In this document: positions 54,822 through 58,348 of the stretch, piece after piece
Position numbering within the stretch: the first letter of the stretch is position 1
How the letters are laid out: each line of letters begins with the position of its first letter
Assembly: GCF_048403405.1 (NCBI RefSeq)
Contig: NZ_CP183129.1
DNA from: Escherichia coli
Lineage (GTDB): Bacteria; Pseudomonadota; Gammaproteobacteria; Enterobacterales; Enterobacteriaceae
DNA: 64,000 nt
Strand: one strand, 5' to 3'
Program-made: the position numbers and the translations under genes
Notes under the pieces: generated by a model
What the model was told of the DNA's origin: nothing
Database searches by the model: none
The model's input: the letters and a program-made list of their open reading frames with translations, nothing else

Positions 54822-55214
54822 TTACCACTTTTTATTCAGCAGGCGGTCGATGCTATACGCGCCCGGACCGGTAATTGCCAGCAGCAGGAATCCGCCAGAA
54901 ATTGTCAGGTTTTTCATGAACATCAGCGAGTTGACGCCTTCAGCAAAGTTGCTGTGAAATAAAAATGCCGTCAGCAGCGTAAAGCCCGCAGTAAACAGGG
55001 CTGTGGTGCGAGTCAGGAAACCGAACAGGATTGCCAGACCACCACCAAACTCAAGCAGAATCACCAGCGGCAGCATAAAGCCTGGGACACCCATCGCTTC
55101 CATATATTGTTGGGTACCCGCGTAGCCAGTAATTTTTCCCCAGCCTGCGGTAATAAACAGAATCGGCATTAAAATGCGCGCTACCAGTACACCAACATCT
55201 TCTAATTTTTTCAT
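54822..55214 (-). CDS. yqjF: DoxX-family inner-membrane protein YqjF
   Basis: ORF track 54822..55304; internal ATG gives MKKLEDVGVLVARIL... (130 aa). Confidence 0.88.
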   Translation of the reverse strand: MKKLEDVGVLVARILMPILFITAGWGKITGYAGTQQYMEAMGVPGFMLPLVILLEFGGGLAILFGFLTRTTALFTAGFTLLTAFLFHSNFAEGVNSLMFMKNLTISGGFLLLAITGPGAYSIDRLLNKKW

Positions 55215-55400
55215 CATACTCTCCACTGCGCCACTCAGGCTGCTGATTGTTTTTTTGTGCAAGGGCGCGGTATTAGCGTCGTTGCTGTCGATGGAGAGAA
55301 TCATAAACGTGGTGAATGATGATTGTTAGCAAGGAAAACTGTCAAAAATCTTCAAAAAATTTGAGGGATAAGGCCGGAATGGCTCCGGCCAGAGAGGTTA

Positions 55401-55700
55401 TTAACCGCGAAGCTGTTGCTGCTTGAGGGTCGTTTTAACCAGACGCCAGGCGCTCCATATGCCAAAACCGCGTCTGGCCCAGCGGACCAGCATATTGGGA
55501 TGGCGAATCGTCCAGATCGCCATCACGCTACTGCCAACCAGCGCCCAGGAGCGCAGACTTAGCAGCATATTCCAGCGACGATCGTAAGCGCCTGTTGCCT
55601 CCAGCCATTCACGACGACTGGCAGAAAGAGCCAGCCGTTGTTGCTGGATCTGGCTAAGCAGTTGCGCCTTACGTCGTTCACGTTCGACTTTACTGCTCAC
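55401..55700 (-). CDS. yqjK: small membrane-associated protein YqjK
   Basis: ORF track 55401..55802; probable GTG start giving (M)SSKVERERRKAQLL... (99 aa); start overlaps the yqjE 3' end. Confidence 0.7.
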   Translation of the reverse strand: MSSKVERERRKAQLLSQIQQQRLALSASRREWLEATGAYDRRWNMLLSLRSWALVGSSVMAIWTIRHPNMLVRWARRGFGIWSAWRLVKTTLKQQQLRG

Positions 55701-56094
55701 GGGACTCCTCCTCGAGCAGCTGCCGATCGTTTGCCAGCTCATGGCGTGTATGGCGCAGCAAGGTGGATTTACGCGATTTACGTAACGTCCAGATACCGCC
55801 AATCAGTGCCAGTAGCAGCAACACCACGGTGGTGGCAATCATCGCATTCAGGCGATATTGCGGATCAACCGCCCAAATAATCAGCACCATCAGGCTCATA
55901 AGACCAAATGCAGCGAAAAGCATCGTCAGGCCCAGCATCAGTAAAAGTTGAAAGAGATTCGCTTTTTCCTCTTCCAGCTCCACCACCGCCAGCCGCAGAC
56001 GTGTTTCCACCATTTCAACCATGATGGAAACAATTCGCTGCCCGATGCCCAGAACGCTTTTACCGGGCCCTTGCGCGTGATGAGTGTCCGCCAT
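55690..56094 (-). CDS. yqjE: DUF1469 inner-membrane protein YqjE
   Basis: ORF track 55690..56163; internal ATG gives MADTHHAQGPGKSV... (134 aa). Confidence 0.85.
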   Translation of the reverse strand: MADTHHAQGPGKSVLGIGQRIVSIMVEMVETRLRLAVVELEEEKANLFQLLLMLGLTMLFAAFGLMSLMVLIIWAVDPQYRLNAMIATTVVLLLLALIGGIWTLRKSRKSTLLRHTRHELANDRQLLEEESREQ

Positions 56095-56096
56095 AA

Positions 56097-56402
56097 TTAA
56101 CGACGCGACAGCAGAACGCCGAGCACTACACCGATTGCAGCGCCAATGCCCACGCCAGTCCACGGATTTTCACGCACATACTCATCGGCACGCGCCGCCG
56201 CGACACGGGTTTGTTTGGCGATGGCATCACCGGTTTCACCCAGGCGATAACGGCTCTGTTTCAGTGCCTGCTCCGCTTTGCTACGAATCTTACTCAACTC
56301 TTCTTTCGACTTCTCGCCAGATGAGCTAAGCACCTCTTCCAGCGTATCGGAAAGGGATTTCAACTCAGCACGCAGATGTTCCGTAGTGTGTTCTTTCGAC
56401 AT
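56097..56402 (-). CDS. yqjD: ElaB-family ribosome- and membrane-associated protein YqjD
   Basis: ORF track 101 aa; C-terminal transmembrane anchor; recognised as YqjD. Confidence 0.9.
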   Translation of the reverse strand: MSKEHTTEHLRAELKSLSDTLEEVLSSSGEKSKEELSKIRSKAEQALKQSRYRLGETGDAIAKQTRVAAARADEYVRENPWTGVGIGAAIGVVLGVLLSRR

Positions 56403-56439
56403 AGTTTTCTCCAGGTGAGTAAGTAGTGACTATTGTGAG

Positions 56440-56808
56440 TTAGTAGTCGCGCGCTTCCAGCTTTTTCAGCTCTTCCTGCGCTTCTGCCAGTTTCCGTTCG
56501 CGTTTGGCAATCTTATCGGCATCGCCTTTTTGCTTCGCCTCGGCTAAATCTTGCTGGCGTTCCGCCACCTCATCTTTCTGCTTTGCGATTTTCTTCTGAT
56601 GATCGGCACGCAGCTGGCTATCTGAACAGTTGGCCCGGACTTCACTCAGGGCTTTATTCAGACCGTCAATACGATTCTGGTTTTGGTGTTTTTCGGCATA
56701 GCTGATCTCCTTAAGGATATTTTGCTCCTTTTCCTGACACAGGGTAGTGGCATAACTACCGGCACTAAGAGCAAAAAGAGAAACAGCTAAAGCGATGCGG
56801 TATTTCAT
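56440..56808 (-). CDS. yqjC: DUF1090 periplasmic protein YqjC
   Basis: ORF track 56440..56823; ATG giving MKYRIALAVSLFALSAGSYA... (signal peptide; 122 aa). Confidence 0.85.
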   Translation of the reverse strand: MKYRIALAVSLFALSAGSYATTLCQEKEQNILKEISYAEKHQNQNRIDGLNKALSEVRANCSDSQLRADHQKKIAKQKDEVAERQQDLAEAKQKGDADKIAKRERKLAEAQEELKKLEARDY

Positions 56809-56954
56809 TCTTGAACCTTCCATTGTGATTCGGACCTATTACAAAGGAACGATTGTCCAGACAACGAAGCGGTAGTGTTAACCACCGCCTCATTAATCAT
56901 AGACAGTTACGGTGAAATCACCAAAGTCAGTGATATGTTTCGGATAACAGGAAG

Positions 56955-57338
56955 TTATCCGAAGCGATGAGAGTTATCCCGCAACCGGGTCAGCCACTGC
57001 ATAGCCTGACTATTATTGTCCTGCTGTGCAATGATGTAGCCATGGGGCAATGTTCTGTCGAGGACCGCTTTTGCGGCGGCACTCTGGTCGCTGGAATCAA
57101 AGGTAATTAACAGAGTGTCATTTTTGGGGGTGATACTTTTGAAAGGAATGCCGTGAGCGTCAAGGTGATGCCAGATTGAAAAACCGTCTGGCATCGTTGT
57201 CCCTTGATGAACGGCACGAATCGCCAGCGTAGACTCTTGCTGGCGAACCGCGGACCAGGCCAGCAACAGTGTGCCGACCAGAAGTAAAACAGCGCCGGAC
57301 CAGGCTAGCTGGCGAAGCGACATGCGAGGTATTTGCAT
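56955..57338 (-). CDS. mzrA: modulator of EnvZ/OmpR MzrA (YqjB)
   Basis: ORF track 127 aa; N-terminal membrane anchor; recognised as MzrA. Confidence 0.9.
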
Positions 57339-57341
57339 CCC

Positions 57342-58004
57342 TTACCCCCGATTTCCATATTTCTTTTTCCATAACACGACCAGAGAACCTGCCAGGCCAA
57401 ACACCAGCAGCACCACCGGGAGCAGCATCAGGCATGACATCAGCTGGTCCTCGTACTTTAAAAATACCGGCGTTTTGCCGAGCATGTAACCCAGAGTTGT
57501 CAGGATCAATACCCACAGCAGACCGCTCATCCAGTTGAAGAACTGAAAGCGCGCGTTATTCAGCCCTGATAATCCGGCAATCGTCGGCAGCAGTGTTCTG
57601 ACAAATGCAATAAAGCGACCAATTAACAGCGCCGATAAACCGTGTTTATGAAAAAGATGGTGTGCGCGTTGATGATAATGCGCGGGTAAATGAGATAGCC
57701 AGTTTTGTACTGTGCGGGTATTGCCCAGCCATCGCCCCTGAATATAGCTGACCCAGCAACCGAGGCTGGCGGCAACGGTCAGCAGCAGAATCGTTTGCGG
57801 ATAGCCCATCGCGCCTTTCGCAATCAATACGCCGACCAACACCAGTAAACTGTCGCCCGGTAAAAAGGCCGCCGGAAGCAAGCCGTTTTCAAGGAACAAA
57901 ATTACAAACAAGACAAAATACAACATGCCAATCATCGACGGATTGGCCAGGGTTTCAAAATCCTGCGCCCACAGGGCTTGCAGCAATTGGGTCAAAAGTT
58001 CCAT
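57342..58004 (-). CDS. yqjA: DedA-family inner-membrane protein YqjA
   Basis: ORF track 220 aa; recognised as YqjA. Confidence 0.92.
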
Positions 58005-58348
58005 TCATTATTCCTGGTGAATCGGTTAACGCCACGCTGGTTTTAAAAGATGCACTACCGCAATGTTATTGCTGTTTTGGTATGTTTTGCGGGTTTGATA
58101 CATCAACACAGCCTGAACTATTCCCTGTTAAATCGTGAGATAAGAAAGCATTCAAAAGCATAAATTCAAATTGAATCTAATTGTAACAAAGGTCAACGTT
58201 GTTCGTTATCAAAATTACATGTCCGTAGAGTCTGATTTTGCTGATTGCAGGGGAGGGTGGCGAGAGGATTTACACAGGCTGACACTTTATACTTTTCGCT
58301 TACCGACGAAGCAAACAGGCGCATTGCAGCGCCTGTCGGATGGAAATT

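Follow-up and report, generated by a model that had tools for sequence, protein, structure and literature searches.

Organization of the yqjD-yqjE-yqjK locus

The region analysed here resides on the minus strand of a 64,000-nucleotide stretch of E. coli DNA, referred to as the window, and contains the three short genes yqjD, yqjE and yqjK, which follow each other in close succession downstream of yqjC. The genes and the features at their boundaries are the following:

56440..56808, minus strand: yqjC (DUF1090), the cistron 5' of yqjD, assigned by PGAP and Pfam
56409..56412, minus strand: Shine-Dalgarno (SD) sequence GGAG of yqjD, duplex ΔG of -6.4 kcal/mol
56097..56402, minus strand: yqjD coding sequence, 101 amino acids, ATG at 56402-56400, TAA at 56099-56097
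56092..56099, minus strand: yqjD/yqjE junction TAA-TT-ATG, with a 2-nt spacer at 56096-56095 and without an upstream SD
55690..56094, minus strand: yqjE coding sequence, 134 amino acids, ATG at 56094-56092, TAA at 55692-55690
55690..55700, minus strand: yqjE/yqjK overlap GTGAGCAGTAA, 11 nt, from the GTG of yqjK to the TAA of yqjE
55401..55700, minus strand: yqjK coding sequence, 99 amino acids, GTG at 55700-55698, stop at 55403-55401
55372..55390, minus strand: GC-rich stem-loop GGCCGGA-GCCAU-UCCGGCC predicted by folding, 11 nt past the yqjK stop

The identities of the three genes, the assignment of YqjD to the ElaB/YgaM/YqjD family, a gap of 2 nt between yqjD and yqjE and an overlap of about 11 nt between yqjE and yqjK had been proposed in an initial annotation of this DNA, and all are borne out by our analysis. 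Gene and family assignments agree with Pfam, PGAP and the annotation of E. coli K-12, the gap is evident in the window sequence and is the same in the annotations of strain TUM14771 and of K-12, and the overlap amounts to exactly 11 nt (55690-55700). In TUM14771, which is 100% identical to the window, the PGAP annotation assigns identical coordinates to yqjD, yqjE and yqjK, and the strain encodes a YqjD of identical sequence. The same layout is found in the RefSeq entry of K-12 MG1655 (b3098, 3249375-3249680; b3099, 3249683-3250087; b3100, 3250077-3250376). Spacing as tight as this is ordinary for operons. Of 5426 complete E. coli genomes, 5422 contain the 1.7-kb segment, with most other E. 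coli genomes showing 95-99% identity to it. Neighbours of yqjE include yqjA, mzrA, yqjC, yqjD, yqjK, yqjF and yqjG, and among the flanking genes the product of yqjC matches DUF1090 and that of yqjF matches DoxX in Pfam.

In the literature, the operon is usually described as yqjCDEK or yqjDEK, with promoters located upstream of and inside yqjC (PMC10746276). The yqjC gene carries an internal sigma-S promoter and CsrA sites for yqjD, whose expression depends on sigma-S and is repressed by CsrA during exponential growth, and a weak CsrA site termed BS4 overlaps the SD of yqjD (PMC10746276). Global mapping of transcription start sites has suggested additional starts 5' of yqjE and yqjK (PMC10746276). 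At the distal end, the 71-nt segment encompassing the stem-loop downstream of yqjK folds with a z-score of -2.06 and contains a 7-bp GC stem without an adjacent U-tract. A terminator scan called no intrinsic terminator after yqjK, and the structure may act as a weak terminator or as a stabilizer of the 3' end. Searches of both strands between 54500 and 57500 returned no Rfam family.

Properties of the encoded proteins

YqjD matches the Pfam profiles DUF883 (PF05957; 49.5 bits, cut-off 25.4, E = 4e-13) and DUF883_C (PF19029; 57 bits, cut-off 27, E = 1.4e-15). Its C-terminal tail (residues 80-101, PWTGVGIGAAIGVVLGVLLSRR) has a KD value of 1.92 and the features of a glycine-zipper transmembrane segment, and the proline at position 80, which precedes the tail, is invariant in the alignment. 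[quoted passage not shown] Its N-terminus is documented by the peptides MSKEHTTEHLR and SKEHTTEHLR, with support from Ribo-RET and INRI (TRAINSPOTTER Table S1).

YqjE matches nearly the entire profile Phage_holin_3_6 (PF07332; 75.8 bits, cut-off 28.4, E = 3.5e-21, positions 5-115 of the 116 in the profile) and contains two hydrophobic segments (residues 44-79 and 79-107) with KD values of 2.4-2.5, as expected for an inner-membrane protein with two transmembrane spans, which are modelled by AlphaFold with a pLDDT of 78-89. The N-terminal peptides MADTHHAQGPGKSVLGIGQR and ADTHH... have been detected, without a Ribo-RET or INRI flag (TRAINSPOTTER Table S1).

YqjK matches its own family profile (PF13997; 87 bits, cut-off 28.1, E = 1.1e-24, residues 14-86) and is very basic, with 19 Lys and Arg compared to 5 Asp and Glu residues, resulting in a net charge of about +14. 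The most hydrophobic 19-residue window (residues 45-63) has a KD value of 1.35 and includes an arginine; the hydrophobic stretch, which is short and located centrally, reaches about 1.35-1.45, and values in homologues extend from 0.6 to 1.9. In the AlphaFold model, the protein consists of two long helices that are broken at the near-invariant Pro68. The description of all three products as membrane-anchored proteins thus holds for YqjD, with its C-terminal anchor, and for YqjE, with its two hydrophobic segments, whereas YqjK is marginal, and its membrane anchoring appears less secure than that of the other two.

The ratio dN/dS is 0.09 for yqjD, about 0.075 for yqjE and about 0.11 for yqjK (the latter in comparison with 11 species), and the yqjK reading frame carries ribosome footprints in published profiling data (density 17.57). 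All three are real genes under purifying selection. No relatives of YqjD, YqjE or YqjK were found in the PDB.

The start codon of yqjK

The assignment of the yqjK start concerns three further features of the locus:

55705..55713, minus strand: SD sequence GAGGAGGAG of yqjK, 4 nt 5' of the GTG, formed by Glu-Glu-Glu codons of yqjE
55692..55720, minus strand: hairpin at the yqjK start predicted by folding, pairing the GUG and part of the SD
55740..55742, minus strand: in-frame ATG 14 codons 5' of the yqjK GTG, giving the 113-residue form of some gene callers, rejected here

At the GTG, the predicted duplex with the 3' end of the 16S rRNA has a ΔG of -11.8 kcal/mol, compared to +1.9 at the ATG 14 codons upstream and -1.5 at a TTG 34 codons upstream, both in frame; the anti-SD value listed by Burkhardt for yqjK is -11.08. 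The window was examined alongside 79 loci of other Enterobacteriaceae species. Each of the resulting 80 sequences contains a start codon at the homologous position, which is GTG in 41, ATG in 36 and TTG in 3 cases, and the preceding CTGGAGGAxGA motif is conserved as SD, with a median ΔG of -9.3 kcal/mol across the 80 species. Any other upstream in-frame start is absent in 66 of the 80, and 49 have an in-frame stop one or two codons before the conserved start. A deep search of 1.84 billion cluster representatives for YqjK yielded 127 clusters at 50% identity, and the N-termini of 27 diverse homologues (27-60% identity, 91-104 residues) fall within about four residues of the methionine encoded by the GTG. 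The match to PF13997 begins at residue 14 of the 99-residue protein.

The strong SD, the start codon conserved in position in 80 of 80 sequences and the N-termini of distant homologues together make the GTG at 55700 the well-supported candidate for the true yqjK start. On the same grounds, the initial annotation was right to select this codon as the probable start, and its statement that the start is uncertain applies to a much lesser degree than claimed. Initiation at the upstream ATG (55742), which would extend the protein by 14 codons to 113 residues, could be advocated since ATG surpasses GTG in strength as a start codon, the frame upstream of the GTG is open in E. coli and some database entries use the longer form (e.g. 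P0001). This ATG, however, lacks an SD, recurs at the corresponding position in merely 5 of the 80 sequences, and would be at odds with the upstream stops and the scarcity of upstream starts described above as well as with homologues that align with the GTG start at a length of 91-104 residues and with the position of the Pfam domain. We thus assign a negligible probability to the longer form.

Among published datasets, the N-terminome in TRAINSPOTTER Table S1 lists YqjD and YqjE but has no entry for YqjK (b3100), and the INRI-seq supplements contain no yqj entries. Arg-C digestion of YqjK would be expected to release MSSKVER as the N-terminal peptide, with just 7 residues.

Conservation of the junctions and translational coupling

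Of the 80 sequences, 71 have a gap of 2 nt between yqjD and yqjE and the other 9 a gap of 1 nt, and an SD in front of yqjE is absent throughout (ΔG of +1.1 in the window, median +0.7; Burkhardt anti-SD value -0.18). The yqjE/yqjK junction is more variable, with a 4-nt overlap of the ATGA/GTGA type in 45 sequences, an overlap of 1 nt in 14, of 8 nt in 11 and of 11 nt in 5, and a gap of 1-2 nt in the remaining 5. The 11-nt overlap is confined to the five Escherichia sequences in this set and is derived within the genus. Compared to Salmonella (GAG GAC GAT CAG TCG TGA), the distance from SD to GTG is shorter by one base in E. coli, which places the GTGA stop out of frame, so that yqjE extends to the TAA 7 nt later.

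We also inspected 11 distant loci with YqjK homologues of 31-45% identity, 10 of which display the order DUF883, holin_3_6, YqjK. At the first junction, the spacing varies between an overlap of 1 nt and a gap of 6 nt, and the second junction shows 1 to 20 nt of overlap in the 11 loci. A YqjK gene is located directly downstream of a YqjE-like gene in all 80 Enterobacteriaceae sequences and in all 11 distant loci. In at least one lineage, the pair is followed instead by a tail-anchored CsbD-like protein. The tight junctions are conserved and not accidental.

Both junctions combine adjacent or overlapping stop and start codons on one strand, as in coupled operons, whereas a downstream cistron devoid of its own ribosome binding site is found in yqjE but not in yqjK with its strong SD. 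An ATG without SD positioned one or two bases past an upstream stop is the classic layout for termination-reinitiation. Because an SD-less ATG is held 1-2 nt past the yqjD stop, yqjE is most likely translated by reinitiation of ribosomes that terminate at yqjD. Our literature search found no published polarity or stop-codon experiment on this operon.

The folding of the yqjK start region was also analysed. A 100-nt segment with this region has a minimum free energy of -42 kcal/mol and a z-score of -3.76, and none of 200 shuffled sequences folds as well. In vivo DMS probing yielded a Gini coefficient between positions -20 and +40 of 0.53 for yqjK compared to 0.373 for yqjD (PMC5318159), the higher value being in agreement with structure around the start. 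Across the 80 species, such pairing at the start is no general feature, and the predicted hairpin is seen in Escherichia. Occlusion by a hairpin was thus rejected as a general mechanism, since this pairing does not generally extend outside Escherichia.

It could be argued that the packing reflects mere compaction of the genome, with each cistron initiating independently by binding of the 30S subunit and no functional coupling between them. The strong and conserved SD of yqjK, the restricted occurrence of start-region pairing and the abundance of short gaps and overlaps in operons, where about 15% of ORF pairs overlap, are all compatible with this view. It has difficulty with yqjE, which lacks an SD in all 80 species and is yet translated, as its detected N-terminus attests, and whose start is kept 1-2 nt from the yqjD stop in 80 of 80 sequences, the spacing expected for termination-reinitiation. 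We thus regard the absence of coupling as unlikely and favour reinitiation at yqjE.

Graded synthesis from a common transcript

The relative output of the three genes can be gauged from published ribosome profiling of MG1655 in exponential growth in MOPS rich medium with glucose at an OD420 of 0.4 (Burkhardt 2017, eLife; PMC5318159, Supplementary file 1). In these data, mRNA level, ribosome density and TE are 239.7, 474.6 and 1.98 for yqjD, 211.2, 34.75 and 0.165 for yqjE and 153.7, 17.57 and 0.114 for yqjK (PMC5318159). The ribosome densities on similar mRNA thus relate as about 27:2:1, a ratio that was obtained in a single condition, exponential growth in rich medium, and applies to a state of weak operon expression and of yqjD repression by CsrA. 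YqjE and YqjK, at about 2:1, are the only pair that differs by no more than twofold. Supplements of two proteome studies (Mori 2021 and PLoS Comput Biol 2022) contained no matches for the abundance of YqjD, YqjE or YqjK.

The stoichiometric co-expression suggested in the initial annotation is contradicted by these values for exponential growth, where the genes are co-transcribed but their products are not made in equimolar amounts. The strictest version of this idea, that tight packing enforces 1:1:1 production of the three proteins as subunits of a single membrane complex, could draw on the very tight and conserved junctions and on a synteny of the three genes that is kept in distant taxa. 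Apart from the unequal ribosome densities (474.6, 34.75 and 17.57), it conflicts with start regions of unequal strength, which combine an SD of -6.4 kcal/mol with ATG in yqjD, of +1.1 with ATG in yqjE and of -11.8 with GTG within a hairpin in yqjK. Also, the AlphaFold prediction of a YqjD-YqjE-YqjK fusion connected by GS linkers, based on a shallow paired alignment of 43 loci and evaluated by its scores, reached a pTM of 0.28 at a mean pLDDT of 64 and did not yield a confident assembly that would support a defined complex. An equimolar complex is thus very unlikely.

Instead, with a probability of about 0.8, we interpret the region as the 3' portion of a stress operon already known as yqjCDEK/yqjDEK and controlled by sigma-S and CsrA, whose co-transcribed reading frames are linked by tight junctions that lead to a graded, non-equimolar output. 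In such a mechanism, yqjD has its own moderate SD and an ATG and is translated efficiently. Ribosomes that end at yqjD would re-initiate 2 nt further on at yqjE with about 7% of the yqjD rate, a process that would also transmit the repression of yqjD by CsrA to yqjE. Translation of yqjK would initiate at the GTG within the last 11 nt of yqjE, behind the strong SD provided by the yqjE Glu codons. In Escherichia, the hairpin covering the GUG and part of the SD would, together with the weaker GTG codon, reduce its output to about half of that of yqjE, and ribosomes completing yqjE would be expected to open this hairpin. The low ribosome density of yqjE fits a reinitiation of limited efficiency, and the low output of yqjK despite its strong SD fits the weaker GTG codon and the predicted stable hairpin. 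The outcome would be an abundant YqjD accompanied by YqjE and YqjK at low copy number.

Relationship to known systems

The closest counterpart of the locus is the yqjCDEK/yqjDEK operon of E. coli K-12 (b3097-b3100), which matches the window in its genes, their order and strand relationship, the start codons and the junctions, with differences restricted to the strain level. In P. aeruginosa, PA3040-PA3042 equally comprise a DUF883 gene followed by a YqjE-like gene and a third, small one, the reading frames being separated by less than 15 bp, and their expression is induced on entry into stationary phase and under envelope stress (PMC11302039). Overexpression of PA3040 and PA3041 is non-toxic, and phenotypes in biofilm formation and tobramycin response map to PA3042 (PMC11302039). 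The E. coli paralogues ElaB and YgaM share with YqjD the N-terminal DUF883 domain, the glycine-zipper C-tail anchor, control by sigma-S and the binding or inactivation of ribosomes. YqjD was proposed as the archetype that has retained yqjE and yqjK as neighbours, with ElaB and YgaM originating from later duplications (Njenga et al., bioRxiv 10.1101/2024.08.16.608256).

In trpB-trpA, trpE-trpD, galT-galK and ribosomal protein operons, stop and start codons likewise adjoin or overlap. In classical coupled pairs, the downstream cistron has a weak or absent SD and relies on translation of the upstream gene. Compared to the equimolar trp pairs, the output of the yqj genes is strongly graded (27:2:1 in exponential growth), and their coupling is putative.

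The family assignment of YqjE invites a different view, where it would be a holin-like membrane toxin and YqjK its partner or antidote, the two forming a module that is merely linked to yqjD. Besides the match to Phage_holin_3_6, this view could explain why overproduction of YqjE leads to growth arrest and raised persistence (PMC4738310), and it would accommodate both the synthesis of YqjE and YqjK within twofold and the one distant locus where the pair occurs without an upstream DUF883 gene. The genomic context speaks against it: we found no endolysin, spanin or phage lysis module in the vicinity and no prophage, but a chromosomal module that is present in nearly all E. coli, and the distant loci show the same non-phage context. 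There, the pair is linked to a DUF883 gene in 10 of 11 cases, and in the exception a gene for a tail-anchored CsbD-like protein follows closely downstream. Membrane proteins are often toxic when overexpressed, and the P. aeruginosa homologues are non-toxic (PMC11302039). A toxin module is thus improbable to a high degree, and YqjE and YqjK probably constitute a membrane-associated accessory pair to the tail-anchored YqjD. A more elaborate version, which we consider doubtful, would assign to both proteins a general role as low-copy core pair (about 2:1) that controls the abundant glycine-zipper protein YqjD, for example in its insertion, its clustering or its release from ribosomes, with the SD-less restart tying the pair to the translation of YqjD and, by that, to CsrA.

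Implications

Previous publications already cover the operon and its annotation, its regulation by sigma-S and CsrA, the contribution of YqjD to ribosome hibernation and the conservation of gene order, including the recurrence of yqjE/yqjK synteny with DUF883 genes and the function of YqjD (Njenga et al. 2024, bioRxiv 10.1101/2024.08.16.608256). Our analysis adds comparative support for the GTG start of yqjK, the absence of an SD from yqjE across species, the derived nature of the 11-nt overlap within Escherichia, and the observation that an inference of stoichiometric expression conflicts with existing profiling data. The comparison justifies confidence in the GTG of yqjK and removal of the 113-residue annotation. 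Close packing of genes should not be taken to indicate equimolar expression, as illustrated by the ratio of about 27:2:1 in exponentially growing cells. The low synthesis of YqjE and YqjK, at roughly similar rates, suggests that they have an accessory or regulatory function beside a ribosome-hibernation factor.

Conserved neighbourhood of the yqjDEK genes

The conserved context of the yqjDEK core is seen in the region at about 54822-58004 of the window and in loci from other genomes (L082, L086 and L092-L095). In most of the distant loci, whose YqjK homologues are 31-45% identical, the three-gene core is preceded by a gene encoding a DedA/VTT-domain protein resembling yqjA and followed by a DoxX gene resembling yqjF, and some of these loci additionally contain DUF1090, GST-like yqjG and DUF805 genes. 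Since these neighbours recur around the core, the conserved neighbourhood exceeds yqjDEK. Further features in and beside this region of the window are listed below.

55300-55345, minus strand: two sigma-70-like promoter matches (TTGACA-18-CATCAT and CTAACA-18-TATGAT)
54822-55304: longest yqjF ORF, 160 aa with ATG at 55304; annotated as 130 aa with start at 55214
56440-56823: longest yqjC ORF, 127 aa from 56823; annotated as 122 aa with start at 56808
about 58026-58109, minus strand: yqiM, a very small gene of 84 nt

Both promoter matches fall in the yqjK-yqjF intergenic region, beyond the GC-rich stem-loop (55372-55390) in the downstream direction, and fit a promoter of its own for yqjF. The annotated yqjF and yqjC genes are both shorter than their longest ORFs. 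yqiM, placed directly upstream of yqjA, is taken from the PGAP annotation of the identical strain TUM14771.

Database records of YqjK homologues

The record L021 (CACSKA010000008.1) is titled 'Chryseobacterium sp. 18061', yet its yqjDEK locus is typical of Enterobacteriaceae. Its YqjK is 74% identical to the E. coli protein, and Citrobacter sp. 18056 (L018), sequenced in the same project, shows a matching junction pattern. A wrong label or contamination of the record is probable. Two further YqjK homologues (P0053 and P0065) are entered as 'Cell division protein FtsH', which looks like a propagated misannotation because both are 98-aa PF13997 proteins.

A yqjE-yqjK pair in a different arrangement

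In the distant locus L091 (2113-3079), YqjE-like and YqjK-like genes overlap by 8 nt, and the upstream DUF883 gene is absent, with a phage-type integrase gene in its place. In the collection, 216 blocks list the YqjK protein of L091. Directly 3' of the pair, an 82-aa protein is encoded, whose N-terminus resembles CsbD (E = 4e-8, a match that does not reach the gathering score) and which ends in a DUF883_C-like glycine-zipper tail (E = 0.005). L091 looks like a permuted order, in which the E-K pair would be followed by a putative 'tail-anchored partner'.
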